Part shown: in pieces, positions 1,163 through 52,837 of the stretch | Position numbering within the stretch: the stretch's first letter is position 1 | Layout: every line of letters begins with the position of its first letter | Virus record (IMG/VR): IMGVR_UViG_2974644955_000001 | Location: 1 to 64,000 of that record | From: a virus | Taxonomy: Duplodnaviria > Caudoviricetes | Length of the DNA stretch: 64,000 nucleotides | Strand: one strand, 5' to 3' | Made by a program: the position numbers and the translations under genes | Notes under the pieces: generated by a model | Databases searched by the model: none | The model's input: the letters and a program-made list of their open reading frames with translations, nothing else | Told to the model about the DNA's origin: nothing

Positions 1163-1648
1163 ATGGAAATGACTGGAAACCTGCCTAAAACCACCAAGAA
1201 ACCTATCATGGGATTTCAAGGTGAGTACCGTTGGCTGTCCAACTTTTGGACTGCACCAATCGTCGTAACAGGGTTCGAATATCAGAACACTGAGGCAGCC
1301 TATCAGGCAGCCAAGACCATCAACGTGGCTCACCGTATGCAGTTCAAGAACATGACTGGTGGTGAGGCAAAACGTGCTGGTCGGAGTGTCATCATGAGAC
1401 ATGACTGGGACTTCGTGAAGCTGGAGATCATGGAACTGGTGCTTCGTGCCAAGTTCATGGCCCATGCTGATCTGGCTCTCAAGCTCATTGAGACTGGTGA
1501 TCGTGACATCGTTGAACTGAATACCTGGGGAGATACTCACTGGGGTCAGGTCAAAGACAAAGAAGGCAACCTCGTCGGAGAAAATGTGCTGGGCAAATTG
1601 CTCATGAACATTCGTTCGGACATCAATAAAGGACTCGCAAAGATATGA
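1163..1648 (+). CDS. NADAR (YbiA-like) family ADP-ribosyl hydrolase
   Basis: WLSNFW, TEAAYQAAK, WDFVKLEIMELVLRAKF, IVELNTWGDTHWG, GENVLGKLLMNIR: hallmark NADAR motifs. Confidence 0.9.
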   Translation: MEMTGNLPKTTKKPIMGFQGEYRWLSNFWTAPIVVTGFEYQNTEAAYQAAKTINVAHRMQFKNMTGGEAKRAGRSVIMRHDWDFVKLEIMELVLRAKFMAHADLALKLIETGDRDIVELNTWGDTHWGQVKDKEGNLVGENVLGKLLMNIRSDINKGLAKI

Positions 1649-2427
1649 CATCAATGGTCACAACTCAGTTGAATCTCGAAGAACTCTGCCATCGGAACCA
1701 ACTGATGGACGTTCTGCGAGAGCAGTTCTCACCTCTGACAGAAGATCCATTCAAGCTGGATGTTCTGTGTCAGATGTATCTGCACAAGCAAACGGACGTT
1801 CCGACTCTCGTTGGACTGTTCAGCCCCAAATGGGGTGAACCACAGGAAGTGGCAGAGATGCTCAAGGAAGTGGTGGAGGAAGACCTCGTGGACTTCGACA
1901 TGGAGAACATGAGGTTCATCCTCAAATATGAGATCACTCAAGATGTCGAAGACATCCTGGCTCATTACCAATTCCCACTGCCCATGATTGTTCCACCGAA
2001 GAAAGTGCAGAACAACCACATGGGATCTGGCTACTACGACAAACGTGGTCGGATTGTCCTCAATGGTTCAGATGTCTTCGATGACGAAGATGTGTGTCTC
2101 GATCACATCAATCGCTGCAACAGTGTCGCACTGACACTGAACACAAATGTGGTTGCATCGGCTGAAGGCAACATGATCCTTCCCAAACGAAAGATTGGTG
2201 AGGATTTCCTGGAATTCCAAAAGCGTCAGAAGCAGGCAGAAGTCTTCTACAACACATCCTTCGAAGTCATGACAGGGATGCTGACGTTGGGCAATGAGTT
2301 CTGGCTCACTCACAAGTATGACCGTCGTGGTCGTACCTATGCAGTGGGATATCACGTCAACTCGCAAGGCACAGACTACAACAAAGCTGTGCTGGAACTC
2401 TCACGAAAGGAGAAAATCATTGGATAA
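1645..2427 (+). CDS. RNA polymerase II subunit 1 (N4 gp15-like)
   Basis: FWLTHKYDRRGRTYAVGYHVNSQG (DxRGR motif of T7-type RNAP N-terminal half); size and position. Confidence 0.9.
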   Translation: MTSMVTTQLNLEELCHRNQLMDVLREQFSPLTEDPFKLDVLCQMYLHKQTDVPTLVGLFSPKWGEPQEVAEMLKEVVEEDLVDFDMENMRFILKYEITQDVEDILAHYQFPLPMIVPPKKVQNNHMGSGYYDKRGRIVLNGSDVFDDEDVCLDHINRCNSVALTLNTNVVASAEGNMILPKRKIGEDFLEFQKRQKQAEVFYNTSFEVMTGMLTLGNEFWLTHKYDRRGRTYAVGYHVNSQGTDYNKAVLELSRKEKIIG

Positions 2428-2512
2428 CTTCACCGCTGGCTTCGTATGTGGAGGATTGAGCGTATGCTTTCTCCTCTTCATCGTCGCCGTGTTACCGGAG
2501 ATTGTGTCATGA
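2420..2512 (+). CDS. Small membrane protein (TTG start)
   Basis: AAGGAG RBS before TTG 2420; hydrophobic segment; overlaps both neighbours. Confidence 0.4.
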   Translation: MDNFTAGFVCGGLSVCFLLFIVAVLPEIVS

Positions 2513-2652
2513 GAAAACTGGAATGGTTCTGTTACCAGCGTCAGTTGCTCATGCAATCCTTCATCAAAATGGCACAGGATATCACTGGTTCAACTGAACC
2601 CAGAACATGGTTTCCTGTCTATCATCGTCTCTACGAAAGGAACATGAAATGA
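2509..2652 (+). CDS. Hypothetical early protein
   Basis: ATGA coupling to both neighbours; GGAG RBS. Confidence 0.5.
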   Translation: MRKLEWFCYQRQLLMQSFIKMAQDITGSTEPRTWFPVYHRLYERNMK

Positions 2653-2753
2653 AATGGCCACTCGACGCCTTCTGGTATGACTTCTGGGAATTCTTCCTGG
2701 GAGCCAACCACATGAAGGCAAACTACATCCGCTGCTCGAATGTGAGGTACTGA
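2649..2753 (+). CDS. Hypothetical early peptide (34 aa, MKWPLDAFWYDFWEFF...)
   Basis: ATGA overlap and AAGGAA RBS; below the ORF-track size cutoff. Confidence 0.45.
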   Translation: MKWPLDAFWYDFWEFFLGANHMKANYIRCSNVRY

Positions 2754-2756
2754 ACC

Positions 2757-2942
2757 ATGTGGAATGTTATCAAAGCCCTCCTGGTTATAGCAGCCTTTCT
2801 CTTTCAGTTCGTCATTGTCTATGGCGCTGAATCAATAGCTGAAGAAACAGGAGACTATGGCCAAGCTATCTACGAAATGCTTTGGCTTCTCCTGCTGTTC
2901 TTCATCGCAGAATCTATGTTGAAGGAGGACAAAGATGGGTAA
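2757..2942 (+). CDS. Small two-TM membrane protein
   Basis: Two hydrophobic stretches; GAGG RBS. Confidence 0.55.
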   Translation: MWNVIKALLVIAAFLFQFVIVYGAESIAEETGDYGQAIYEMLWLLLLFFIAESMLKEDKDG

Positions 2943-3249
2943 AGAACCTGCACCCAAATCAGAGATGGTCAAAGAAATTGCTAGTGCCTATGGCATGACC
3001 GTCGAGGACAAACCCATGTCCAAAAGAGAAAAGCTGAAAGCCTGGCAAAAGAACTACGACAAGCTGGGCTTCAGCAACTTCCTATGTGGTGACGAAGCAC
3101 TCGTCACTGTCATGGAAAACGACAAGATCGAAGTGAAGATCCGGAAACAAACATCCGCAGATGAGTCCCGGAACTATCGCTTCGTCTTCGACACTCAATC
3201 GCAGTGTGAGCGTTTGCTCCCTGCCCTTCTGAAAGGACTCACCAAATGA
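2935..3249 (+). CDS. Hypothetical early protein
   Basis: 104-aa ORF with AAGGAGG RBS and phage-like codon usage. Confidence 0.65.
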   Translation: MGKEPAPKSEMVKEIASAYGMTVEDKPMSKREKLKAWQKNYDKLGFSNFLCGDEALVTVMENDKIEVKIRKQTSADESRNYRFVFDTQSQCERLLPALLKGLTK

Positions 3250-3374
3250 TCATTGTCAACGGTCTAACGAGGTCACTCGTGGTCTTTGGCAATGTATCAC
3301 ACAATGACTTCCAACTGTTCATGGCTCAAATGCAACACGCTGTGAACCTACACAAAGGGGATGATCCAGCATGA
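3246..3374 (+). CDS. Hypothetical early peptide (42 aa)
   Basis: ATGA-coupled at both ends; AAGGA RBS. Confidence 0.45.
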   Translation: MIIVNGLTRSLVVFGNVSHNDFQLFMAQMQHAVNLHKGDDPA

Positions 3375-3550
3375 TCACCGCTGAGATGTATGAAAAAGCC
3401 ACAGGCCACAAGCCTGTGGATGATGACCTGGAACGTGCAAACTGTCGTCAGGCAGGAGAACTGGGTCATTTCCACTGTGGATGGAACGAGGAAGAAAACC
3501 TTCCTCGGACCATGACTCCACCCTTCATCAAAAAGGAACTTCAACCATGA
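3371..3550 (+). CDS. Hypothetical early protein (MITAEMYEKATGHKPVDDDLERANC...)
   Basis: ATGA-coupled at both ends; C..GH..CGW motif. Confidence 0.55.
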   Translation: MITAEMYEKATGHKPVDDDLERANCRQAGELGHFHCGWNEEENLPRTMTPPFIKKELQP

Positions 3551-3792
3551 TCACCGGAGATGACATCCGTCGCCTTGAAGAAGAGGCGGCCAACAAACCA
3601 AAGAAGCTGCTTATCATCGACACGATGCAGTTCTTTGAAATCGAGATCCCAGAGGATGTCGATGCTGAGTCCTTCCTGGACTCTGACCTTTGTCGCCAAG
3701 TCTGTGCTGACAAAATCCTGAGTGGCATGACTGATCTTGAGATCAATCGTGTCATGAAACAAAACCCTCAAACCAAGGAGTTCGAAGAATGA
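3547..3792 (+). CDS. Hypothetical acidic early protein
   Basis: ATGA coupling; AAGGAA RBS. Confidence 0.55.
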   Translation: MITGDDIRRLEEEAANKPKKLLIIDTMQFFEIEIPEDVDAESFLDSDLCRQVCADKILSGMTDLEINRVMKQNPQTKEFEE

Positions 3793-24288: not shown

Positions 24289-24678
24289 ATGATCTTTGTC
24301 TTTGGTTCAAACAAAGCAGGCATCCATGGTGCAGGAGCGGCTCTCTATGCCAAGAAGCACCGTGGAGCCAAGCAAGGAATCGGAGAGGGCATAGTTGGAA
24401 ACAGCTATGCCCTTCCCACTAAAGGATTCAAGGTCGAGGAAATCCCTCTCCTTGAAATCAAAAACAGCGTCAATCGCTTCATCGAAGTGGCTGAGTATTG
24501 GGCTTTGCGTGGTGCAGAGTTCCAGGTTACACGAGTTGGCTGTGGTCTAGGAGGTAAACTGGATTCGGACATCGCTCCGATGTTCAAGGCTGCCCCTGAC
24601 AACTGTCTGTTTGATGAGTATTGGAAGCCCTGGCTCGACACATATGATGTGAAGCGGAGGTACTGGGGTACATTCTGA
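24289..24678 (+). CDS. Macrodomain-like protein (DarG/TARG1-type loop)
   Basis: IFVFGSNKAGIHGAGAA, YALPTK and FQVTRVGCGLGG correspond to macro-fold ADP-ribose-binding loops. Confidence 0.65.
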   Translation: MIFVFGSNKAGIHGAGAALYAKKHRGAKQGIGEGIVGNSYALPTKGFKVEEIPLLEIKNSVNRFIEVAEYWALRGAEFQVTRVGCGLGGKLDSDIAPMFKAAPDNCLFDEYWKPWLDTYDVKRRYWGTF

Positions 24679-39432: not shown

Positions 39433-42400
39433 TCAATCTAGCATCAGGTTGTACCATGGGTTCAGTTCTGGTGCTGCAAACAGCATTTCCATACCCGTAG
39501 CATAATCCAACCGTCCCTCGATCATGACCTGGAAGATGTTATCCTGGATCGGAGATCCGATATCAGGAAGCATCATGTTCAGAGCCAGTGACCGAACTGG
39601 GTTCTCCCGGATCTGCTTCATTGCGATCTTCGCAATACGCAGTTTGAAGGACGGGAACCACAGAAGACCCATACGTTCCAGATAGGATCGTGTCCGACCC
39701 GGAGCAGGAGTGAAGTTCACGAACTCTTCGTTCATCCGGGTAATAGCCTGCGACTCGCTAACTCCCTGTTTGATCAGGTGGTCGTAGTAGATAGACTTAG
39801 CCAAGAAGTCACCATACTGAGTTGCCCTGTTGGCAGCCTTGTACATATCGGTGGACTTCGAAACCATCCCAATCTTCACAATACCACCACCCACAGGCAG
39901 CTTGTCAGCGAGTTTCTCCATGTACTCAGCCAGCTTACCAGATGTGATTGCCACATCCAGGTCAGTGATACCCTCAGACAGTTGCTTGTAGGCACCAGCT
40001 TCGATCATAGGAGCAATCGTCATACGCTTGTTCAGATCTTCGATCACTCGGATCTTGTCTTCAATCACAGTCCGACGCTGTTGGTTGTTACCAGCAAGCA
40101 GCAACTGAGCCTGAAGCTCTTTGATCTTCACTTCGTTGTTGTTGTACTCTTCGATCTCAGCCAGCTTCGAACGGAAATCCTTCACCATGGTTTTGTGAGG
40201 GACACCAGCATTCATCAACTGGATAGCGTTCGAACGCATGTTCATGGCAGGAACGATCAGAGAGCGAACCACAATGATATCCTTGGCCGTGGCTACGATC
40301 CCCTGGAAGCCTTCCTCACCAGCACTGAGCCACCGCATAGCACTACGTCCCAGGAGACGCTCTGTGCTCACACGCACGGCTTTCTGGACCTGATCAGGCA
40401 TACGAGACTTCCCATTCCACATATCAGTGATGGAAGCCTCACGATAACCTACAGACAGATTGATCATGGCCCGAGGGATCATGACACCATCAGAACCGAA
40501 GATGTTCTCCAGATAAACCTTGGTGGTTTGTGGAACCAAAGACCAAGTATCCTTGTGGATAGGATCCTCAGACTCTTTGAAGTCAACGAACGTGCTCTCA
40601 GATCCACGCTCACGCTGATCCCAGACCTTCTTCAGTTCATCTGCCAGAGTCTTGTTGTATTCAGCAGCAAGGCTTTCTTCCACCTGACGACCAGCCCAAG
40701 CACCCATCATGACTGCAAGGTTCTCTTCACGACCAGAGTGCAGATCCATCACATCCTTGGAGACAGACAGTTCAAAGCCCTGGATGGAACCATCTTCAGC
40801 ATGGACAGGCATGACGTTTTCTTGATCATTTTCGACCGTAGTTGATTCACGAAGCTGATCGTTCACCAGACCGGGGACCAGACCATCCTCATTCGAGATG
40901 TATCCAGCAGTGTTCCCAGTGACGCTGAGACCGTTGCTTGTGTCCACACCACGATAGGTATTGGCCACGTTCTGGAGAGCACCCTGTGTATAGGCACCCT
41001 GACGACGAACGTTGGAGATGTAATAGGATTTCGGGAACACCGAAGATGCGTCACCTGTATAGGCTCCCAGCTTCTTGTACCCTTTCCGGTTCATCTCACG
41101 CTCAGACTCATCCAGTTCCACAACGATCTGGAGGTTTTTGCCACCTTCATTGGGGATATACCCCTTCCAAGCATTCAGACGTGCTTGGTTCGAAGGCTCT
41201 TTGGCTTCTTCCTGTTCGCTCAACTGTTGCAGATATGTCACAATAGCAACGATTGCATTGGGATCGTTCTGCCAAAGCTGAACCACATCCTCACGAGTGG
41301 ATGGATCCATGACATCAATTGCCTTGATCGAGATCCAACGATCCAGAAGACCTTCCACTTCAGCAGGAATCGAACCTTCCAGACCATTCATAATGGCATA
41401 GGCATTCCGCATCAGCATCTTGCCAACGATACCGTTGGACATGAAGTTTGCCAGTTGCTCACCCTTCTGGATAGCAGCATCAGCATTCGACTGGTTCAGC
41501 TTGGTCCGGATTTCGTTCTCGATGTTGTTCAGCATTGTCTGACGAGTCGAGCGTTCTTCCATCACCTTCATGGAGTTCTGCATGTTGTTCACATCCAGCA
41601 CTGAATAGACATCAGTCTTGGCCAGAGTGTTGAACATGGACTTCCACTGTTCCTTCGAAGGAGGAGTCTGGAACACACGCTCCAGGATACCAGGAAGATC
41701 CTCACGGAAAGCCTGACGCATACCAGCGATACCTGCGTTGATCTTATCCAGGAGAGCAGTGATACGCTCATTCTGACGATCTGTACCCACCATCTCAGTG
41801 ACCAGTTCCTGGAATGGAATCAAGACCTTCCATCCTTCAAACTGGTTCACGAACCGTTTCGAGGCTTCACCTGTCAGTGCAGCACCCTCACGAGAGAGAA
41901 GGTTTGTACCAGCCACAGTCACTGTACCCATCAACAGCTTCACAGCAGTGTTGCGAGTCGAGGCTTGAACATCAGCGTTCTTCTCACGCATCATGCCAGA
42001 GACGCTGGAGAATGCCCCAGACACATAGTTGTCTGCATTCTCCAGATTGGTCGTGATGTGAGACAGAACCCGATACTCTTCGTTCACGTCGTGATCGACG
42101 ATAGTAGCAGCAATCAGATCCAGAACCTCTTTCGGTGGCTTCGTGTCAGCGTCCAGAGAAGCAGTGAGCTTCTGCATGGTGAATGCTGTCATCTTCTGCA
42201 TGAATGCAGGCAGAGTGCCTTGGATCGAGTTGTCCCCAGTCGGTTGAGGGATCTGCTCCATCACAGCTTTCATCCGAGTGGATGTCTGGCTCAAACCAAA
42301 GAGAACAGCAACAGCGTGTCCAGGTGTTGCATCTTTGTCACTCAGAGTGTTCACCACAGCAGAGTAGATGTTGTTGGCTTCAGTACCTTCACCGAACATC

Positions 42401-45400
42401 TGAGGATCCAGATTGTCCAAGATATGCTGGAAGACACGAGTCAACTGGATCCGAGATTGAGGAGTCAGTTTCATCTCAGACAGCATGATACCGTAGATCG
42501 CTTTGAAGGTAGCCTGATCCCGTGTGTTGTGCAGCAGTCCAGCCTGACGCAGATCGTCGATCACCCGTTGGGCGTTGGCCAGTTCCAGAGAGGTACGCTG
42601 CACCTGCTCATCGGAAGCCTTATCAGCAATCCAGTCACGGAGAGTGTTGATCCAGTAGTTGGTGAAGTTGTGGAATGGATCATCCGTCTGAGGAGGACCA
42701 CCGTTACCACCACCATCTCCATTGTTTCCACCACCGGAAACAATAACTCCACCACCCCCGGTTCCACCATCATTGTCTCCAAATAGGACACGAGTGTTGA
42801 AGACCGTGTGGCTGAACATATCCTGACGAACACCACCCATGATCCGACGCATCAGTTTAACCACTGCATCAGAGATCTTCTTCAGGATGTTGGCCTGCTC
42901 ATTTTCCAGGGTACGACGTACACCCTGATTGGACAGAGCATATGCCATGAATTCATTGATCGCAGATGCCTTGTCCTGGGGCTTACCTTTGACAAAGCGA
43001 CGGTTCATCACAGACTGAGCACGCAGCACAGCCTTGTTATCGGATTCAATCTCGACGAACTGGCGAGCAAGATCTTCCAGACGCTCCACAGCAGGGTTCT
43101 TCTTCCCTTCGTAGTGCTCCAGCACTTTCCCATATGTGGCAGCATGAACCATCTCATGAAGGATAGTCTCGTTGCTCTTTGTGGTGATGTAGATGATGTC
43201 GTTCTTCGCATCATACGTCCCACGAGCACGCAGAACAGACCCATCATCAGGCATGTTCTCCCACTTCCATTGGTTCAATTGATCCAGAGTTCCGAAGATC
43301 ACACGAGTATCACCCAGCAGTGGCTTGAGGATATCCACTGTCTGCTTTTCATTCTGTGTCCATTTGGTCACTTTCAGAACGGTACGAGCATCAGAAACTG
43401 TGACTGGGGTTTTTGTCTCAGCCCGGTCATTGATGTTGGATCCAGGATCTTTCATCTCCAGTTCGATACGTGCATTGGTTTCCGTCCGGTTCCATTCAGA
43501 ACCATCTTCAGAGAAACCAATTCCACCACCACCCATCTGATCGACAGACTTCTGCATCTGAGCAATGATCTTCTTCCGAGCCTTGTTCTCTTTGTAACGC
43601 TCTTTCAGTTGCTCATGCAGTTCTTTCCAGTTGGCAGCCACAACGGTTTTCTTCTTGAAGTTGCCCAGCACATCAGCCGCAGCAGCTTCAAAAGTTGCTG
43701 GATCATCAACACGTTCCAGGAAAGACTCAAAGTTCTGAAGAGCCATGCCCAAGACATCACGCTTCCAGGATTTGTTCACAGCTTCGTTGATCTGAGGGCT
43801 GTAATCCCGGATCTTCGTAACAGGCACGTCAAGGCCGTCAAAGACCCCTAAAACGTCTTCAGGGGCATTATCTGACCCAAAGAAGAAATTCATCATCATC
43901 GCATCACCAGAACCAATGACCATGAATGGCAGGGCTTTCACACCGATATCATCAGGCAGAGGCATACGAGCCGGAGTCCGGATTCCTTCGTCCATGTTCG
44001 ACGACACACGCATGTCAGTCAGCTTCTTATCGAAGCCACCAATTGCCAGAGTCTGATCATCTGACCGGAAGATCGGAGTCAGTTGGTACATCTCTTTCTG
44101 GATCCGCTCAAACGTTGCACGAGGCAATTGAGCAGGACTACGGACACCAGCTTCCTTTACAGCGTCAGCGATGGCCTTGTCATACATCCGTTGGACATAA
44201 GCGTTCTGCATGTTGGTGACGAGCACCAGCATATCATTCAGTTGCTCGATACGAGGTCCAAGAACCTCACGAGTTGCATCAGTCAAAGCCTGACCAATGG
44301 TAAACTGCACAGCAGTTTTGAACTTGTTCACCTGATCAATCGGGAACACGAAGTTCTTGTCTGGATTCTTTGGCAGAAACAGACCCATGTTGGCCATGTC
44401 TTCCCGGATCTCAGGGTAGAAATACTCTTCATAGGATTGGTTCTCACCCATCCCTTGAGCCTTCTCATAGAAGTCCAGCAGCATGTCCCCAGCAACACCA
44501 GAAGCCACACCTTGGACACCAGAACCATAGTTGACCTTGGTCATCGGGTTCTTGGCAGAACTACGGGTCATCCGGTATTCGATAGATCCATCAGGAGTTT
44601 CGACCCTTTCACTCTCAGAGAATGCCCATGCCAGACGTTTGGCAGCAGCACGTTGCTTCCGTTGCCATGGTTTCAGATCCGTACCAGCGGCAGCCAGAAG
44701 GTCATCAGTCCGTTGAGCCACTTGCTCATAGAGGTCAGTGGTTTGCTTTGAACCAAAATAATCATTCACTGTCCGACCGATCTTCCCAAGGAAGAGACCG
44801 ATACGGTTGAAGTTTTCCCACTCTTCAGCAGCAATCAAACCATGGCCAAAGTTCACCATCATGTTTGCAGCACCGTTGGTCAAACCATCAAGCTCAAAGC
44901 TCAGAGATGTCTCAAAGGAAGTTTCACCACTTTCCAGAGCCAACTCCATAGATGCCATAGCTTCAATGGCCCCAAGCACAGCAGGGTCATCAGACTGGAG
45001 AGCCTCAATGTAGGTATCCACATCGACCTCACCCCCAGTGAGGATCGCCTTGGTCATGTCCACAGCAGGACGGAACTTCGCTTCAAAGGCTTCTTTCACC
45101 TCAGAAAGAACCTCTGTCTCATTCCGCTTCTCGACTTTGAACAGACCAGAAGCCTGTGCAATCCCCAACCAGAAACCATCCATATCAGCCTTGTCATTCG
45201 TATCGACAGTGCTCCACGTAGGAGATGCAAAGAAACGAAGGAGTTTATTGGCTTGAGGGTTCGGACCCTGATACTGGTGACGACCTACTTTCGTGATCCC
45301 GACCGGGTAGTAGATCAGAGCCTGGATGTTATCACCCAGAGCAGACATGATCTCATTCACCTCAATGATGTTCAGACGGACTGTGGCATTCTTGCCCAGT

Positions 45401-48400
45401 GCAGACTTCCGAAGGATAGGATGTGCAATCGTCGTAGCATCAGGAACGAAACCAAGCCACTTCTCCAGACCATCTTCACCCAGTGCTCCGAGAATCGTAC
45501 CCCGGTTCACATTTGCACGGTGGCCAGTATCCTGCATCTTCTTCACAGCTTTGGTGATCAACGAGGACAAACGTACATCAGACCGTTCCCCTTTGACTGG
45601 GACAGTCTTGATCTTCTCACCAATCGAATAGGTTGCACGCACGTCGTTGAAGATCGACTCACGAGCAGTGTTTGTGACACGTTCACCACCTGCGTTGCGG
45701 ATACGCTGTTGCAGTGTGGTAAGTTTGTCACCAGTGACTGTGATCGTCAGAGCCTCATCAGCATTCGGAGGAGTGATCTCAACAGATCCACCCAGTCCTG
45801 CACTGACCGAAGTTGCACCACTCAGTTTGATCTTATCAACAGAGACGATATCCATCTCATCCATGATCGTGATCATCTCAGCAGCAAAACCTTGAGCCAG
45901 ACCTTCCAGTTCATTGACTGGACGATCCTTGTTCTCAGAGCGGTTCATGAGACGCATGAAGTCAGATGCCAATTGGTCTTTGACCTGTGATGCAGGAAGA
46001 CCATTCAGGATCGCTTGTAGGCTGGACTCTTCCACATCGTTCATGGTCAGACCACGATCTTCGAGGGTGTCATCCAACTTACGAGGATCAATAGCAGCAG
46101 CAGATGTGATGAAGTCCACGATAGCAATCGTAGCCATTTCAATCACTTGGTTATCATATGCCTGAGTTTCAGGGTTCATCAGAGCAATCATCTTGAATTG
46201 CTTGAAGAATTTCCCTGACAGGAAGTGTTCAGCAAAGGTAGCTACCTTGCCAGAGTTCTTCACTTTCCGCTGAAGACGGGCATTCAATCGACGACCGATC
46301 TCAGCTTTCAGTTCCCTGGCGACAGTGATGTGTTCCTGGTTCATGCCTTCACGGGCAGCCAGATCATCAATCCCTTTGACTGGAGCTTCCCCACCCTTGG
46401 TAGGGAAGTTCTCATCAGCAGCCGGACTTACTTGGGCTTCTTCAGGGGTTCCATCTCCTGGCTCTTCGGTGGTGCTTGGAACGTCGATGGCGTCACCTTC
46501 GCTGACTTCGGTGCTTTCAGCGGGAGTTCCAACTGTATCTCTTTCCCTTGGGCCATAGACTTCCTCCATCAATTCCTTGGCTTTGTTCATACCATCCATC
46601 AAGGATGGATCTTTCGAGAACCACAATTCACTGATGATTGCGAAGATCTCTCGACGACGTTGTGTATCACTATCCTGACCAACCGCATAGTCATAACGAC
46701 CACGTACCCAGTCACCACGATCTTTCAGCAGTTCAAATTCAGCAGTGATGGCTCCATCCTGATCGAAGGAGACACGAGAAGAGATCTCACGATCTACATC
46801 ACCAAAGGATTTCTCAGAGAAATCAATGATGTGTGCCATTTCGTGAATGACCACAGCTTTACCGAGACGAGTCAGTTCCTGCTTCTCTGCATCCCAGAGT
46901 TCATCACTCAGGAAGATCTGGTTCGATTCATCATCGGCCATACCAGCATCATTCATGACTTCAGCAGGGTACATGACAATACCCTTCTCACGACGGGCCA
47001 GCTTGTTCCCGAAGTATTCCTTGATCAAAGAGCGAGCAGCACGACGGAAAGCAGTCTTCTGTTCATCCAGACGTTTACGTGGACCTTCAGGCCACATCTC
47101 AGGAGTTGTCAGAAGTTCATATACCTTTTGATACTCCTGCTCATCGGATGAAGATTCACCTCCCTCTTCATTTCCCTCCTCGGGTTCTGACTCGCTACGC
47201 TCATCAGAAGCCTCGTCGCTCAATTCATCACTCCGTGATTCTCCATCCTCTTCGACAGCCGTTGGTTGATCAATGTCCTGTTGCAAAATTGTCACACCAG
47301 AAGCGTCACGTTTCACAACCATGATCTCTCCGTCGAGACCTCGGACAATGGCACCATCATAGCCACCCTGAACCATCAAACCATTGAGATCTTTCTGGTT
47401 GTTGATCCAGAATTGATCTGGTCTCTGGCCAGGAACATCAATCTCCATAGGCTTTTGAAGATCTACAGCGACCTCTTTCACATGAGGATCGTTGCCACCT
47501 TTGAGGTTTGAAAGTTTGGCGTAATCACGAGCCAACTCAAGACTGTTCGTGAAGAACAGACCTGATTTGTCTTTCAAATTCTTACCTACTTTTCTGACAT
47601 CAAACTGCTCAAACCGACTTCCTGTACCGTGATACAGTTGCATCAGTTGTGGTTCACCAGCAGTCAGAGTAGCCCCTTCAGGAACATTGAAGTTATCTGG
47701 TAGTTCATCTGTACGGTCATTCAGGATCTCATTCAGAGTATCCAGATCTTCTTGACGTTCAGCCAACAGCTTCTCAAACTTCTGGATCGGACCTGTTTCA
47801 GTTCCAGGGTTCCGTGTCTCACGGGCAATCAATCGGTTCAGACGCTTACGAGCTTCTGCCACCTGCTTCTCAGCAAATGTGATCTGATCTGCCAGAGCTT
47901 CATCAGAGATGTTCTCATATGCCTTCTTACGTCGTGAGGCTTGGGTATCCTCCTCGACCTCGGTTGCCCCCTCGGTCTCGTCGATAGCCGTTGGGGTTTC
48001 TGTCTGTTCTTGTGTTTGTGGGTTTTGCTCGTCGGTTTCCTGGCCGGAAACCTCCTCGATACCCGTTGGTTTCGGGTCAGGCTTCGCCACCTCGATGTTT
48101 TCCATCGGCTTCGCATCAGCATCAAAGAACTCAGGGAATTCCTGAAGCAGAAGATTATACGTATCAATCAATGCGTTAGCATCCTGCTCGACTTGCAGAG
48201 CCAAGGCAGCAGACTTCTCATTGGTTGGGGAATACCACACACCTTTGATCGAAGTCTTGTTCCCCTCAGTGGTACGCAGTTCACCATTCATCAGAGCTTG
48301 GAAATCAACCGTAGGAGCCACAACATTCCCACTCTCAGTGGTTACGTTATTGGCAGCCGACTCATTCAGAGCAGTGACTTTGTTCACCATGTGCTGGGCA

Positions 48401-50715
48401 AAGTTACGCAATTCCTTCGCCACAACTCCCGCAGTGACGACCTGTCCTTTTTGGTTGATGATCGCAGCGTCTTTGGGGAAAATCCCCGTCTGGGCAACTG
48501 CCTGCGCTGCGAGGACTAGATCCCGTCCAAAGTCATTGATGGAACGATAACCCTTACGAACTTTAGGGTCATTCCGACCTTCGGTGAAGATCTGACGACT
48601 TACTCCTTTGATCGTCTTTTCTTGAGTCTTTGGGCGGGAGCCTGGTTTCAGTGAGATATTCTCACCTTCACTCAACTCAGCCTGGCTCTCGACATTACGA
48701 TTGATGATCTCAGCCAGACGAGAAGACACACGAATATACTTCGCGTCTTCCGGACTCACATCCCTCTCATTATCTTCCAAAAGATTGTTGCCCACATCTG
48801 GGTTCATGTTACCCGGATTGGTACGTGCAACGTTGACCACACTCGATGTGGATGTATCTGCACCCTCATCGTTCAGATCGACAGCAGCAGCCCTCTCACG
48901 GATGTTCTTGACCATCTTGGTAGACATCAAACGACCAACAGCCTTCTGTTGATCTTGAGGCAATGAACCAACGATAGACTCCAGACGGTTCACCATGTCA
49001 GCAGCATAGACCACATCTTGATCTGTTGGTTTGAAGCGACGGGTTCCCATCTTGGCCATAATACCAGTCAGGCTTTCAACGATATTCCGTCCACCACCAG
49101 CAACGTCAGAGAAGCCCTCTGGAGCTTCACGAGCATCCGGAGCGTCAATCACTTCAGTGACCTTGGGATCAATGGTTCCATTGGCAGCCTCGGTACGAAG
49201 AGCCTCAGTCACATCAATTGTGGTCTGTACGTTCTGACGAACTTCTTTGTTGTCAGTGGAGTCATCAATCCGATTGAGACCCTCATTGACCACTGCACCA
49301 GCAGCACGAGCCACAGGAGCAGCAGCAGCCCCGACAGCTTCACCTACAGGAGCGAGAGCACGTCCAGTCGCATCAGCAGCCCTGGAAGCCCGTGAGCCTT
49401 CTCCTGGAGCCGTTTCAGCGAACAGAGCATTAGCTGCATTGCGTGCTGTACCAAGAGCAACAGCAGGAGCACCCATGGTTCCAGCAGTACCCACACCAGC
49501 AACAAAACCTACACCTGCCCCTGTACCGACACCTTCCATGGAATCACGGCCAATGGCAGCGTAATCCTCAACGGCAATGTTTCGGTTATAGACAGACGTA
49601 CCTTCCTGACCCAGTTCTTCAACACCCTCACCTGCAATTTGCAGAAGGTTGGAAGCAACACCTTGGCCTCTGAATGCCAGAGGACCAAGAGCTTCAAAAC
49701 GAGAAGTGATGAAACCAATGGCCATAGTAGATGGAACCTGACGAAGCAGAGCAGTTTCAGCAGCCAAACCAGCAAGCTGAACCTTTGCTTCTTCGGGGGT
49801 CATAGTCGGATCTTCATCCAGCATAGCCTGCATGACAGGAGACGTAGCCAAGAGTTTCTCAGTTTCGATCCCCATGACATCTGTGACAGTCTCGGAATAG
49901 ACGTTACCCAGTTCAGGGAAACCTGTGGTCGCAGAAATGGCCATTGTTCCAGCAACACGTTGAGCCAGAACACTCTTGGTTGCCACACCAGCGGCTTGCA
50001 TTGCAGCCTTACCTGCCACACCACCCAATGGCGCTGTGAAAACCATATCACCAACAGACTCAGCAATCGTATTGGACAGCAAACCAGGATCACGAAGATA
50101 TCGTTGACCTGCATTTACAGCGTTACGACCTTCACGCTGCCATTTGGCAATAGTTTCACTTTTTCCTGCCTCAATGTCACGTTGGTATTGAGCCTCAGAA
50201 TCCTGTTCATCCAGTTGACCTTCGATACCCTCGAAGTACCGTTTGCCTTGGAGTTCGTCAGACAGGTTCATCTCTTGCATTCCTGCAACGATCTCAGCAT
50301 GAGCCTGCATGAGAGGAGCAGCACGTTCTGCACCTGAACCACCTTCAGGATTCAACCATGCACGAGCATAGGAATCAGCAAGAATACCTGCTTGTCCCAA
50401 GGAGCGATATGCCCCGGTGGAAGCAGAAACAAATAGATCACTGGCAGCAGTGTCTACATCATCAGAGGTATTGAGACGTTCTTCACCACGAACAAGACGG
50501 TGACGGTTGTTCGCAACATCATCCCCGTACTTCATACGAAGACCGGAGACACTCATTTCACGAAGGTCTGTGGAGAGTTCAGTATCTGCTAGATCGTTAC
50601 CACGCTTGTTGGCGACAGCGAGAGTATCTTGGACTTGTCGATCACGCAAATCTGGGGCTTGAGCCAGAGTAGCTTCAATCTCTTCGTCCACCGAAGGGGT
50701 AACTCGATCATTCAT
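39433..50715 (-). CDS. Virion-encapsidated RNA polymerase (N4 gp50-like) with inserted ART-like and zincin domains
   Basis: 3760 aa with no Cys seen; TKVGR, motif A FELDGLTNG, motif B RSSAKNPMTKVNYG, motif C VFDG; HEMVH zincin; extra LYHGT and HEMAH domains. Confidence 0.96.
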   Translation of the reverse strand: MNDRVTPSVDEEIEATLAQAPDLRDRQVQDTLAVANKRGNDLADTELSTDLREMSVSGLRMKYGDDVANNRHRLVRGEERLNTSDDVDTAASDLFVSASTGAYRSLGQAGILADSYARAWLNPEGGSGAERAAPLMQAHAEIVAGMQEMNLSDELQGKRYFEGIEGQLDEQDSEAQYQRDIEAGKSETIAKWQREGRNAVNAGQRYLRDPGLLSNTIAESVGDMVFTAPLGGVAGKAAMQAAGVATKSVLAQRVAGTMAISATTGFPELGNVYSETVTDVMGIETEKLLATSPVMQAMLDEDPTMTPEEAKVQLAGLAAETALLRQVPSTMAIGFITSRFEALGPLAFRGQGVASNLLQIAGEGVEELGQEGTSVYNRNIAVEDYAAIGRDSMEGVGTGAGVGFVAGVGTAGTMGAPAVALGTARNAANALFAETAPGEGSRASRAADATGRALAPVGEAVGAAAAPVARAAGAVVNEGLNRIDDSTDNKEVRQNVQTTIDVTEALRTEAANGTIDPKVTEVIDAPDAREAPEGFSDVAGGGRNIVESLTGIMAKMGTRRFKPTDQDVVYAADMVNRLESIVGSLPQDQQKAVGRLMSTKMVKNIRERAAAVDLNDEGADTSTSSVVNVARTNPGNMNPDVGNNLLEDNERDVSPEDAKYIRVSSRLAEIINRNVESQAELSEGENISLKPGSRPKTQEKTIKGVSRQIFTEGRNDPKVRKGYRSINDFGRDLVLAAQAVAQTGIFPKDAAIINQKGQVVTAGVVAKELRNFAQHMVNKVTALNESAANNVTTESGNVVAPTVDFQALMNGELRTTEGNKTSIKGVWYSPTNEKSAALALQVEQDANALIDTYNLLLQEFPEFFDADAKPMENIEVAKPDPKPTGIEEVSGQETDEQNPQTQEQTETPTAIDETEGATEVEEDTQASRRKKAYENISDEALADQITFAEKQVAEARKRLNRLIARETRNPGTETGPIQKFEKLLAERQEDLDTLNEILNDRTDELPDNFNVPEGATLTAGEPQLMQLYHGTGSRFEQFDVRKVGKNLKDKSGLFFTNSLELARDYAKLSNLKGGNDPHVKEVAVDLQKPMEIDVPGQRPDQFWINNQKDLNGLMVQGGYDGAIVRGLDGEIMVVKRDASGVTILQQDIDQPTAVEEDGESRSDELSDEASDERSESEPEEGNEEGGESSSDEQEYQKVYELLTTPEMWPEGPRKRLDEQKTAFRRAARSLIKEYFGNKLARREKGIVMYPAEVMNDAGMADDESNQIFLSDELWDAEKQELTRLGKAVVIHEMAHIIDFSEKSFGDVDREISSRVSFDQDGAITAEFELLKDRGDWVRGRYDYAVGQDSDTQRRREIFAIISELWFSKDPSLMDGMNKAKELMEEVYGPRERDTVGTPAESTEVSEGDAIDVPSTTEEPGDGTPEEAQVSPAADENFPTKGGEAPVKGIDDLAAREGMNQEHITVARELKAEIGRRLNARLQRKVKNSGKVATFAEHFLSGKFFKQFKMIALMNPETQAYDNQVIEMATIAIVDFITSAAAIDPRKLDDTLEDRGLTMNDVEESSLQAILNGLPASQVKDQLASDFMRLMNRSENKDRPVNELEGLAQGFAAEMITIMDEMDIVSVDKIKLSGATSVSAGLGGSVEITPPNADEALTITVTGDKLTTLQQRIRNAGGERVTNTARESIFNDVRATYSIGEKIKTVPVKGERSDVRLSSLITKAVKKMQDTGHRANVNRGTILGALGEDGLEKWLGFVPDATTIAHPILRKSALGKNATVRLNIIEVNEIMSALGDNIQALIYYPVGITKVGRHQYQGPNPQANKLLRFFASPTWSTVDTNDKADMDGFWLGIAQASGLFKVEKRNETEVLSEVKEAFEAKFRPAVDMTKAILTGGEVDVDTYIEALQSDDPAVLGAIEAMASMELALESGETSFETSLSFELDGLTNGAANMMVNFGHGLIAAEEWENFNRIGLFLGKIGRTVNDYFGSKQTTDLYEQVAQRTDDLLAAAGTDLKPWQRKQRAAAKRLAWAFSESERVETPDGSIEYRMTRSSAKNPMTKVNYGSGVQGVASGVAGDMLLDFYEKAQGMGENQSYEEYFYPEIREDMANMGLFLPKNPDKNFVFPIDQVNKFKTAVQFTIGQALTDATREVLGPRIEQLNDMLVLVTNMQNAYVQRMYDKAIADAVKEAGVRSPAQLPRATFERIQKEMYQLTPIFRSDDQTLAIGGFDKKLTDMRVSSNMDEGIRTPARMPLPDDIGVKALPFMVIGSGDAMMMNFFFGSDNAPEDVLGVFDGLDVPVTKIRDYSPQINEAVNKSWKRDVLGMALQNFESFLERVDDPATFEAAAADVLGNFKKKTVVAANWKELHEQLKERYKENKARKKIIAQMQKSVDQMGGGGIGFSEDGSEWNRTETNARIELEMKDPGSNINDRAETKTPVTVSDARTVLKVTKWTQNEKQTVDILKPLLGDTRVIFGTLDQLNQWKWENMPDDGSVLRARGTYDAKNDIIYITTKSNETILHEMVHAATYGKVLEHYEGKKNPAVERLEDLARQFVEIESDNKAVLRAQSVMNRRFVKGKPQDKASAINEFMAYALSNQGVRRTLENEQANILKKISDAVVKLMRRIMGGVRQDMFSHTVFNTRVLFGDNDGGTGGGGVIVSGGGNNGDGGGNGGPPQTDDPFHNFTNYWINTLRDWIADKASDEQVQRTSLELANAQRVIDDLRQAGLLHNTRDQATFKAIYGIMLSEMKLTPQSRIQLTRVFQHILDNLDPQMFGEGTEANNIYSAVVNTLSDKDATPGHAVAVLFGLSQTSTRMKAVMEQIPQPTGDNSIQGTLPAFMQKMTAFTMQKLTASLDADTKPPKEVLDLIAATIVDHDVNEEYRVLSHITTNLENADNYVSGAFSSVSGMMREKNADVQASTRNTAVKLLMGTVTVAGTNLLSREGAALTGEASKRFVNQFEGWKVLIPFQELVTEMVGTDRQNERITALLDKINAGIAGMRQAFREDLPGILERVFQTPPSKEQWKSMFNTLAKTDVYSVLDVNNMQNSMKVMEERSTRQTMLNNIENEIRTKLNQSNADAAIQKGEQLANFMSNGIVGKMLMRNAYAIMNGLEGSIPAEVEGLLDRWISIKAIDVMDPSTREDVVQLWQNDPNAIVAIVTYLQQLSEQEEAKEPSNQARLNAWKGYIPNEGGKNLQIVVELDESEREMNRKGYKKLGAYTGDASSVFPKSYYISNVRRQGAYTQGALQNVANTYRGVDTSNGLSVTGNTAGYISNEDGLVPGLVNDQLRESTTVENDQENVMPVHAEDGSIQGFELSVSKDVMDLHSGREENLAVMMGAWAGRQVEESLAAEYNKTLADELKKVWDQRERGSESTFVDFKESEDPIHKDTWSLVPQTTKVYLENIFGSDGVMIPRAMINLSVGYREASITDMWNGKSRMPDQVQKAVRVSTERLLGRSAMRWLSAGEEGFQGIVATAKDIIVVRSLIVPAMNMRSNAIQLMNAGVPHKTMVKDFRSKLAEIEEYNNNEVKIKELQAQLLLAGNNQQRRTVIEDKIRVIEDLNKRMTIAPMIEAGAYKQLSEGITDLDVAITSGKLAEYMEKLADKLPVGGGIVKIGMVSKSTDMYKAANRATQYGDFLAKSIYYDHLIKQGVSESQAITRMNEEFVNFTPAPGRTRSYLERMGLLWFPSFKLRIAKIAMKQIRENPVRSLALNMMLPDIGSPIQDNIFQVMIEGRLDYATGMEMLFAAPELNPWYNLMLD

Positions 50716-50776: not shown

Positions 50777-52837
50777 TTACTGTACTCGACGGACTGAAGC
50801 CCCTGGACCTGGAGTAGCAAGAGCAGCCGCAGCTTCCCTTGCATCTTCTTCCTCAACGATAGAGGAGTATTGTTGCAGTTCTTTCACCAAACCTTCACGT
50901 TGTTCCCGCAAGTCTTGCAGTTGAGTCTCATAACGACGTTTCAGTTCTGGGTCATTCTGTACAGCAGAACGACGCAACTGAGACTGGATCTGAGCTTCTT
51001 GAGAAGCATTCAGAGTCATTTCACGATCAACACGATCAATGTTGTTCCGGGCTTCTGCGAAGTTCCGGCCACCATCAGTCGAGTATGTACCAAGCAGTTC
51101 TTCCATCCGGTCAATGCTGACTTGGTTGTTGAGTGTGTTACGACCAGTTGGGTCAGCTTCAAACACACGAGAAGCCAACGCATAAACCTCATCAATCGTA
51201 AGATCTGGATCCGATTTCCGAAGTTCACGGTGTGCTTTCTGCAAGTGCTGATCCATGGTTGCTGGATCAAAGTCTGCATCCCGACCAAAGATCGGGTTGT
51301 TCTCGAAGTCATCATCCATCAGACGGAACTGATCAATCAGAGCAGCCGACTTCTCAGTGGATGTGCTCATCCCTGCGAAACCTTCTGCATCCACAGTCAA
51401 CTGTGCTTCTGGTGTACCACCAACGGCACCACGAGCCAGACCAATATCAGTCTGTTGATCAGCCGTTTGTGTCTGACGAATCAACTGTTCAGCAGTAGAT
51501 TCACCTGGAGTGAGGTTTTCCTGAAGGATCGGGCTGCCATCATAGATCTCAGACAGACGTTGTTCCAACGCATAGATCTCTGGTTCAGACATATCCAAAC
51601 CAGTTTGCAGCATTTCTTCACGACCTTGACGAATGAATTGCTCTTTCGTTGTGATGTTTGGATCCTGAGACAAGCTCTCAGCAGTCAGCAGAGTCTGATC
51701 AAGGATAGTCTCAACACGCTGTTCTTCGTTGAGTGTATCACCCCGTGTTGCAGCTTCTTCCAATGGAGACTGTTCTGCTCGGATTTCAGAAGGAACGAAC
51801 AGACCAGATGCAGCCATACGAGCAGCAGTCTGATCACCACCAAATCCACGAATAGGTTCTTGATTGCCTTGGTTGTCCCGACGATCATTGACGATTGGAC
51901 CACCCCAAGCAGGCTGAGAAATAGCAGGGTTGTAATAGTGAGTCGCACCCTGTGTCGGATCTTCATACTGACCACTCAGAATTGCTTGAGCTACAGCCAT
52001 AGCTTCTTCACCTGGCTGGAAGTTCATATCCTGACCTTGTTCACCACCAGCATAGCCAGTTTGTGAATTCCAGGCAGAGAATTGGCCAGGTTTCATGATG
52101 ACGCCATCAATGCCTTCACCATATTTTCCTGACGCAGCACGGTTACGAATGACCGAACCAACAGCCAACATACCTTCAGCACCTTGGTTCCCGGCTTCTG
52201 CTTGCAGAGTACGAGCCAAACGCATGACAGTTTCAGGAGAAGCCTGAACGGCTCCTGTGTTACCGTTGACTGGGCCTTGGCCCGGATCAGCGTTACCAAA
52301 GACGTGATCACCAGCACGGACAAATTCACCTTGTCCCCGTGGGATCGAGCTACCATTGTTCAGACCACCAAGGCGATCATTGACGATACTGCCAGCATTT
52401 TCCTGAAGCCATTCACGTTGATCAACCATACGGCCATCTTCACGCATAAAGATCCCGTGTTTGTCACGAGATTGGCTCATGTTCTGATACGTGTTCGCTG
52501 TGCGAGCATCAGTATTTCGGGTGTTGGAATTCGTGTAATCCAGATCACTCCGACGAGTCATCGTATCACGAAGATCAGTCAGACCTTTCTCACCCAGATT
52601 CAAATCATCGAATGCACCAGCTTGGTACATTGCAGTGATCTCATCTTGGCTCTTACCACCAGTCCGACGAAGAAGTTCATTGTGTGCTTTGGTTTCAGCA
52701 CCTTCTTGATAAGACGAAAGAATTCCTTTGGCTGCCTCACCAGCAGCCATTAGAGATTCATTGGAGCCTCGCATCAAACCAGCCACATTAGGTTGGGCTT
52801 GGTTCAACTGTCGCCACTGGAGTCTTGGATCAGCCAT
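50777..52837 (-). CDS. Ejection protein (N4 gp51-like) with SleB/Hydrolase_2 cell-wall hydrolase domain
   Basis: LARTLQAEAGNQG..GMLAVGSVIRNR...GQFSAWN...GATHYYNP; position next to vRNAP. Confidence 0.85.
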   Translation of the reverse strand: MADPRLQWRQLNQAQPNVAGLMRGSNESLMAAGEAAKGILSSYQEGAETKAHNELLRRTGGKSQDEITAMYQAGAFDDLNLGEKGLTDLRDTMTRRSDLDYTNSNTRNTDARTANTYQNMSQSRDKHGIFMREDGRMVDQREWLQENAGSIVNDRLGGLNNGSSIPRGQGEFVRAGDHVFGNADPGQGPVNGNTGAVQASPETVMRLARTLQAEAGNQGAEGMLAVGSVIRNRAASGKYGEGIDGVIMKPGQFSAWNSQTGYAGGEQGQDMNFQPGEEAMAVAQAILSGQYEDPTQGATHYYNPAISQPAWGGPIVNDRRDNQGNQEPIRGFGGDQTAARMAASGLFVPSEIRAEQSPLEEAATRGDTLNEEQRVETILDQTLLTAESLSQDPNITTKEQFIRQGREEMLQTGLDMSEPEIYALEQRLSEIYDGSPILQENLTPGESTAEQLIRQTQTADQQTDIGLARGAVGGTPEAQLTVDAEGFAGMSTSTEKSAALIDQFRLMDDDFENNPIFGRDADFDPATMDQHLQKAHRELRKSDPDLTIDEVYALASRVFEADPTGRNTLNNQVSIDRMEELLGTYSTDGGRNFAEARNNIDRVDREMTLNASQEAQIQSQLRRSAVQNDPELKRRYETQLQDLREQREGLVKELQQYSSIVEEEDAREAAAALATPGPGASVRRVQ

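Follow-up and report, generated by a model that had tools for sequence, protein, structure and literature searches.

Does the virion RNA polymerase (vRNAP) that an N4-like marine phage is expected to deliver into its host also carry an enzyme that modifies the host? This question is raised by a 64,000-nucleotide stretch of viral DNA (hereafter the window), the first 64 kb of IMG/VR record IMGVR_UViG_2974644955_000001, which measures 74,704 bp and is rated 100% complete. The window encodes a homologue of the coliphage N4 vRNAP, gp50, in which an earlier note had placed an ADP-ribosyltransferase (ART) domain of the polyvalent-protein type. We find that residues 1023–1145 of this vRNAP very probably form a genuine ART-PolyVal ("N4-ART") domain of the HY-[EDQ] clade. 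On balance, we consider it probable that the domain acts as an injected, membrane-tethered NAD+-dependent mono-ADP-ribosyltransferase that targets host protein and is possibly freed by a neighbouring zincin.

The fusion of an ART to a vRNAP is already published and is the source of the Pfam family name. Iyer et al. (2017, PMC5512222) took as the family prototype an ART that forms part of the N4-like vRNAP from Roseovarius Plymouth podovirus 1 (RPP1); in their words, the ARTs of polyvalent proteins "are prototyped by" it, and they proposed an Alt-like role as an injected effector. The "N4-like" or "N4-ART" family was later counted among the most frequent viral ARTs (Iyer et al. 2022, PMC9503650). 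The copy described here is a divergent further member. New here are its placement in a linker slot of the vRNAP, a map of presence and absence among roseophages, the recognition of Asp1120 as a near-invariant acid, the purifying selection on the domain and the reading of its GC content.

Family and fold of the domain

The profile search suggested in the earlier note gave a clear result. ART-PolyVal (PF18760) scored above its cut-off of 31.2 bits whether the query was the isolated domain (42.8 bits), the whole protein (36.5 bits) or a six-frame translation (40.1 bits), and DUF3990 was a second, weaker profile match. Using the domain as a phmmer query against 1.84 billion cluster representatives, we obtained 337 matches at E ≤ 1e-3. 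Most were giant multidomain proteins, many of them with several ART copies, as is usual for polyvalent proteins. A profile search of PDB sequences yielded sub-threshold matches only (E 0.1–2), mostly to PARP, cholix toxin or diphtheria toxin; a word-indexed homologue search with the domain alone found one other giant protein only, and a pattern scan of IMG/VR found no relative.

AlphaFold2, supplied with 18 short homologues, gave a confident model (predicted local distance difference test score, pLDDT, 88.6; predicted template modelling score, pTM, 0.82). We aligned this model exhaustively to 48,161 solved chains with VIA-align, and nearly all of the top 50 matches were enzymes of the ART superfamily. 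Z-scores were 9.2 for MbcT, 8.8 for PARP2, 8.4 for PARP1, 8.3 for tankyrases, 8.1 for NatT, 7.8 for diphtheria toxin and 7.3 for ParT, and cholix toxin, exotoxin A, Arr and KptA were also matched. Toxins of the R-S-E clade reached only 4–4.6, compared with 8–9 for PARPs. A Foldseek comparison, likewise proposed beforehand, recovered ART enzymes with MbcT in first place and so agreed with VIA-align, but its E-values were weaker: the best was 1.9e-3, and none in the PDB reached 1e-3. Among predicted viral structures (BFVD), the best match was the vRNAP of roseophage RD-1410W1-01 (E 7e-9, root-mean-square deviation 2.2 Å over 130 columns), followed by dozens of proteins named ART-PolyVal-like. 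With a profile score above cut-off, a confident model and structural matches to ARTs, the predicted presence of a polyvalent-type ART in an N4-like vRNAP is borne out, and we regard the fold and family, as judged from sequence profile and model, as settled. As is typical of ART-PolyVal, the domain is embedded in the vRNAP ORF (open reading frame) together with a Peptidase_M90-type zincin, in a protein whose packaging is predicted from its homology to N4 gp50.

Active-site residues

All motifs from which the ART had been predicted are present (LYHGTG at residue 1027, GLFFTN at 1052, GGYDGA at 1117 and GEIMVV at 1129). Their conservation was counted in an alignment of 121 homologous family domains (Table 1). 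Like His1029, Gly1030 is found in all 121. The strand-2 aromatic of GLFFT, Phe1054, is Phe in 83 and Tyr in 33 domains, Phe1055 is kept in 111 and Ala1062 in 118, while Tyr1065 is replaced by Phe in three relatives. Asp1120 was invariant in a further alignment. Position 1130 is far more variable among the 121 (Glu 28, Ser 20, Gln 10, Asp 9). It is Glu or Asp, though, in all seven vRNAP-borne ARTs, namely those of this phage, P0003, R7L, DS-1410Ws-06, EE36phi1, DSS3phi2 and RD-1410W1-01. The His, Gly and Asp are also kept in these seven, despite an overall identity of about 30%.

The published family definition places a His in strand 1, a Tyr in strand 2 and an Asp in strand 5 (Iyer et al. 2017, PMC5512222), and the present ART conforms to it with the commoner Phe in strand 2. 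The domain had been read as an H-Y-E enzyme with an E.VV motif. The His and the aromatics of that signature are there, but the family is described as H-Y-D, and E.VV is not one of its signatures: Glu occurs at that position in 28 of 121 domains, the Asp of GYDG in 119. Relative to the N4-ART family, this copy has a Glu at 1130 in addition to the family Asp. In the VIA-align comparison, model range 16–149 aligns to PARP1 residues 854–1010, and strand order and aligned ranges together would put Glu1130 at the position of PARP1 Glu988.

The domain has its fold in common with the H-Y-E ARTs of the PARP and diphtheria toxin type, and it can be aligned with them, at sub-threshold scores (E 0.1–1), over the N-terminal motifs HG[ST] and Gx[YF]F[AT]...Y; a weak hidden Markov model (HMM) alignment sets GxYFA...Y of PARP12 opposite GfFFt...Y of this family. 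It differs from them in that the conserved acid of the family is an Asp one strand earlier and in lacking a PARP regulatory or helical domain. The features of the R-S-E clade (T4 Alt or VIP2 type) are not seen, as the domain has a His in strand 1, FFT in strand 2 and no ExE. T4 Alt had been called a member of an unrelated class, which is incorrect: the R-S-E enzymes are a clade of their own but fall within the one ART superfamily (PMC5512222).

Position of the domain within the vRNAP

The protein that carries the ART is a member of the Schitoviridae vRNAP (N4 gp50) family. It matches PHROG 2206 "virion RNA polymerase" from end to end (2503 bits), contains the Pfam domains vRNAP_dom (PF21769; 159 bits, aa 2259–2395) and N4_RNAP_helical, aligns by blastp with the N-terminal domain (NTD), core and C-terminal domain of gp50, and has gp51–53-like ejection genes as neighbours. 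N4 gp50 itself resembles it in these homologous domains, in an HExxH motif of the C-terminal domain and in the same ejection-protein gene neighbourhood. The polymerase core is 42–53% identical to most N4-like roseophage vRNAPs, with EE36phi1 and DSS3phi2 the best matches and phiCB2047-B at 35%, and similarity at the DNA level is patchy. These comparisons identify the phage as an uncultured relative of the Rhodovirinae.

In N4, the NTD and the polymerase are joined by a low-complexity linker of about 100 residues (907–1006; PMC13434306). About 530 residues replace it here, as delimited by the homology blocks of the NTD and the core. Because these flanking blocks align with their N4 counterparts, the ART and a zincin occupy the slot of the N4 linker, and we describe them as two accessory "beads" in a flexible linker that would join a membrane-binding NTD to the polymerase core. 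The ART comes third in this region, after an acidic segment and a charged spacer, and is followed by a very acidic linker, the zincin and a third acidic linker (Table 1). As predicted, the ART adjoins the zincin upstream of the polymerase core, as located by Peptidase_M90 and blastp to N4 gp50, and gp50 lacks the ART. The claim that two acidic linkers enclose the domain needs some amendment: the downstream one abuts it, but the upstream one lies about 90 residues away, beyond the charged spacer. This spacer had no family match and, judged by eye from its sequence, is probably helical.

Table 1. Features of the vRNAP gene. Positions are those of the window; conservation counts refer to the alignment of 121 family domains.
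Feature	Residues	Window position	Strand	Basis
vRNAP, N4 gp50 homologue	3760 aa	39433–50715	−	single ORF
N-terminal domain (NTD)	152–910	47986–50262	−	blastp to N4 gp50 aa 165–945, 25% identity, E 1e-31
First acidic low-complexity linker	~885–925	47941–48063	−	Asp + Glu 23–33% in 30-aa windows
Charged spacer between first acidic linker and ART	926–1010	47686–47940	−	sequence
ART-PolyVal (N4-ART) domain	1023–1145	47281–47649	−	PF18760 and predicted fold
His1029 codon, YHGT, strand 1	1029	47629–47631	−	His in 121/121; strand aa 1023–1031 of model
Tyr1065 codon, A..YA, helix after strand 2	1065	47521–47523	−	Tyr in 102/121
Asp1120 codon, GGYDG, directly before core strand 5 (aa 1121–1125)	1120	47356–47358	−	Asp 119, Glu 2 of 121; DSSP
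Glu1130 codon, GEIMVV, directly before penultimate strand (aa 1131–1135)	1130	47326–47328	−	model strands
Second acidic linker	1150–1195	47131–47268	−	47% Asp + Glu
Linker zincin metallopeptidase module	~1196–1390; HEMAH 1291–1295	46546–47130	−	Peptidase_M90
Third acidic/Pro-rich linker	1391–1438	46402–46545	−	composition
RNA polymerase core and C-terminal domain	1439–3757	39445–46401	−	blastp to N4 gp50 aa 1045–3498, 26% identity, E 0

The linker zincin, about 150 residues downstream of the ART, scored 31.7 bits against Peptidase_M90 (cut-off 26.2), with a sub-threshold match to SprT-like. It is separate from the conserved C-terminal zincin, whose HEMVH motif was found by an HExxH search at residue 2520, inside the block of the core and C-terminal domain. 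Homologous linker modules were found in R7L, DS-1410Ws-06, EE36phi1, DSS3phi2, SupP_AX, V13 and DFL12phi1. Between the ART and the zincin, the EE36phi1 vRNAP is about 150 residues longer than that of DSS3phi2 (HExxH at residue 1332 versus 1178), so the linker is length-plastic even among close relatives; the extra segment repeats linker-like sequence (HMM match, aa 1192–1227).

Distribution, descent and selection

The earlier note had also proposed mapping the ART across related vRNAPs, and this proved informative. The phage collection contains vRNAPs of this type from 15 distinct roseophages; tblastn detected the ART in ten, and PF18760 matched inside the vRNAP ORF in all five roseophages tested. 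The phages fall into several combinations. Both ART (by PF18760) and zincin (by motif and phmmer) are present in this phage, R7L, DS-1410Ws-06, EE36phi1 and DSS3phi2. RD-1410W1-01 and the metagenomic vRNAP P0003 have only the ART, SupP_AX, V13 and DFL12phi1 have only the zincin, and phiCB2047-B and coliphage N4 have neither. V12, V14, V17, V21 and RD-1410Ws-07 carry the ART according to tblastn, which was run for the ART only, and in R2C tblastn, the sole check made, did not find it. No PF18760 match was found in G7C, Rhizobium phage RHEph24 or Achromobacter phage Axy04. From this pattern of presence and absence, the ART and the zincin are, at the level of gene content, independent and dispensable modules.

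The ART is 49% identical to that of the uncultured vRNAP P0003 and about 28–31% identical to the cultured-roseophage ARTs examined. In a maximum-likelihood tree, this ART forms a pair with that of P0003, and the ARTs of the five cultured roseophages fall into one group (SH-aLRT 94). When the seven vRNAP ARTs were forced into one clade, the likelihood was higher than that of the free tree (p-AU 0.67). A single origin of the vRNAP ARTs, followed by fast divergence and losses, is thus not rejected by the tree comparison. Between related phages, the rate of nonsynonymous substitution (dN) is far below that of synonymous substitution (dS), with dN 0.15 and dS 1.7 for R7L versus DS-1410Ws-06 (dN/dS ~0.09) and dN 0.027 and dS 0.38 for EE36phi1 versus DSS3phi2 (dN/dS ~0.07). 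Such ratios indicate that the ART is under strong purifying selection between related phages.

Proposed role of the domain

N4 ejects its vRNAP into the cell (PMC13434306, PMC13492108). The NTD of that protein inserts into the membrane, and the linker tethers the polymerase and the C-terminal domain, both of which refold in the cytoplasm (PMC13434306). By homology, the vRNAP described here would be carried in the capsid and leave by way of the tail, after which its NTD would anchor at the inner membrane and the ART, zincin, polymerase and C-terminal domain would refold on the cytoplasmic side. Because of this homology to the N4 topology, we expect the ART near the site of DNA entry. Since the N4 vRNAP enters the cell by ejection, it is reasonable to infer that the ART arrives before gene expression. 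Once inside, the ART may mono-ADP-ribosylate at least one kind of host macromolecule, most likely protein, with NAD+ from the host and ahead of phage gene expression, in parallel to T4 Alt. By cutting the acidic linkers, the neighbouring zincin may set the ART free.

Several known systems bear on this proposal. The closest is the RPP1 vRNAP ART (CBX87992.1; PF18760), compared here by its published description. It has in common with the present ART its Pfam family, its vRNAP carrier, a neighbouring zincin metallopeptidase, the H/aromatic/D residues and a predicted injected role. T4 Alt is, like the predicted ART, virion-borne, delivered with the DNA and active before phage gene expression; according to the work cited in PMC5512222, it modifies the host RNA polymerase alpha subunit and other proteins. 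The two differ in that Alt belongs to the R-S-E clade and is a separate head protein, whereas this ART is of the H-[Y/F]-D/E type and is a domain of a polymerase. A further virion protein with a similar fold is the pre-ejectosome protein of cyanophage A4, solved by cryo-electron microscopy (PDB 9k3a chain B), in which residues 1419–1610 match the ART model (Z 6.9, 20% identity, 118 residues). This protein, which is no polymerase, belongs to a cyanopodophage of the T7-like kind, and ADP-ribosylation goes unmentioned in the text of the A4 paper. The paper on the R7L isolate (PMC11934525) likewise makes no mention of an ART domain.

A number of observations weigh against an active, injected transferase. 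The PF18760 alignment spans only positions 5–70 of the 140 in the model, that is, its N-terminal half, and MbcT, the top single structural match, works as an NAD+ phosphorylase rather than a transferase. In place of the strand-2 Tyr, this protein and every other vRNAP-borne copy have Phe. The catalytic acid could, from the modelled strands, be either the near-invariant Asp1120 or Glu1130, which corresponds by strand order to the Glu of PARP and diphtheria toxin; both are present. N4 vRNAP is reportedly packaged unprocessed, and the release of the ART by the zincin is therefore speculative. Five of the 15 roseophage relatives lack the ART, so the domain is dispensable for the N4-like life cycle. 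Finally, the literature searched held no enzymatic, proteomic or infection data for this domain or any other ART-PolyVal member.

We also considered a wider reading of the linker, to which we give little credence for now. The NTD–polymerase linker of Schitoviridae vRNAPs might be a general cargo slot, in which small effector beads (the ART, the zincin and, in other lineages, other enzymes) would have been gained, lost and diversified independently. The reason would be that whatever lies in the linker passes through the tail and is left tethered on the cytoplasmic side of the pore by which the DNA enters. The ART would then stay tethered and modify a local target rather than diffuse as Alt does. 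Candidate targets would be a host factor at the entry site, early RNA as it is being made, or the acidic linkers of the vRNAP itself.

Alternative explanations

Of the alternatives to a host-protein transferase, one keeps the ART activity but changes the substrate, so that the domain would act on nucleic acid or in cis (on the genome end, nascent early transcripts or the Glu/Asp/Ser-rich linkers of the vRNAP) and leave a regulatory or protective mark. Its tethering between membrane anchor and polymerase would suit such a role, as would the flanking linkers, which are very rich in Glu, Asp and Ser. The superfamily also includes modifiers of nucleic acid: KptA is among the structural matches, and DarT-like ARTs are discussed in PMC9503650. 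Neither sequence nor structure, however, shows an affinity to DarT or KptA above that to protein-modifying ARTs of the PARP and diphtheria toxin type, and Iyer et al. place the family with protein-modifying ARTs (PMC5512222). We regard this alternative as rather unlikely.

The rank of MbcT suggests another activity. MbcT leads both structural searches (137 residues aligned by VIA-align), and NatT follows at Z 8.1. The domain might thus be an NAD+-consuming enzyme, an NADase or NAD+ phosphorylase like these RES-domain toxins, that lowers NAD+ locally or destroys NAD+-derived defence signals at the entry site. PARP and tankyrase Z-scores, though, lie within 1 of that of MbcT, which amounts to a tie, and the HGT, GxFFT and AxxYA motifs align in weak profile matches with PARP12, PARP10, cholix toxin and diphtheria toxin, among which there is no RES-domain toxin. 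Moreover, an N4 virion holds only about four vRNAP copies (PMC13434306), too few for bulk depletion of NAD+. An NAD+-consuming role therefore seems improbable to us.

Could the domain be catalytically dead, a structural bead or spacer that only aids packaging or ejection of the giant protein? The strand-2 Phe of every vRNAP copy, the Phe in place of Tyr1065 in three relatives and the five relatives that manage without the domain would all fit. Against this, the His, Gly, Asp and an acid at 1130 persist in all seven vRNAP copies at about 30% identity, dN/dS is below 0.1, and Phe is the family majority at the strand-2 position. We judge an inactive bead to be very unlikely.

The last alternative, a horizontal insertion that is recent and confined to this phage, is highly improbable, and we rejected the idea of a recent AT-rich island. 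It draws on the AT-richer DNA pointed out in the earlier note and on the finding that the domain scores up to 83 bits against ARTs of unrelated polyvalent proteins and 32 bits against R7L. The dip in GC is real but modest: 44.9% versus a gene mean of 50.1% (standard deviation 1.9), which is in the lowest 1% of 370-nt segments of the gene and the lowest 5.6% of those in the window. Signs of recent insertion are not seen, as third-position GC is ordinary (43.9% versus 49.9%, standard deviation 7.8; 22nd percentile), the same slot holds an ART in ten roseophages and in P0003, and the one-clade tree is compatible with a single origin. The dip more likely stems from amino-acid composition than from foreign origin.

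Neighbouring genes

Two further genes of the window deserve mention. A 129-aa ORF at 24289–24678 (+) has no Pfam match and falls in PHROG 2072, "unknown function". Its confident predicted structure (pLDDT 91.3) is a macro domain, for which Foldseek gave TARG1 and DarG as the closest matches (probability 0.99–1.0, E 1e-3 to 1e-2). Across Schitoviridae and in some jumbo phages, the gene is conserved in 354 phage records, among them N4-like phages whose vRNAP has no ART. This spread does not support a dedicated eraser partner of the ART; from its modelled fold, the product looks like a lineage-wide ADP-ribose eraser, perhaps aimed at DarT-type defence.

The gene upstream of the vRNAP, which corresponds in position to N4 gp51 (50777–52837, −), encodes a Hydrolase_2 domain (SleB-type cell-wall hydrolase) at residues 218–311. 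R7L gp67 is likewise annotated with a cell-wall hydrolase domain. Peptidoglycan hydrolase activity is said to be absent from the ejection proteins of N4 itself (PMC13434306).

Significance of the vRNAP-borne ART

If active, the vRNAP-borne ART would be a second, independent case, beside T4 Alt, of NAD+-based modification of the host before phage gene expression, and the first to reside on the very polymerase that is injected. Among cultured roseophages there is natural variation: some have the ART and the zincin, others the ART only, the zincin only or neither. As some of them infect the same hosts, they would offer a ready comparative system for finding the target.

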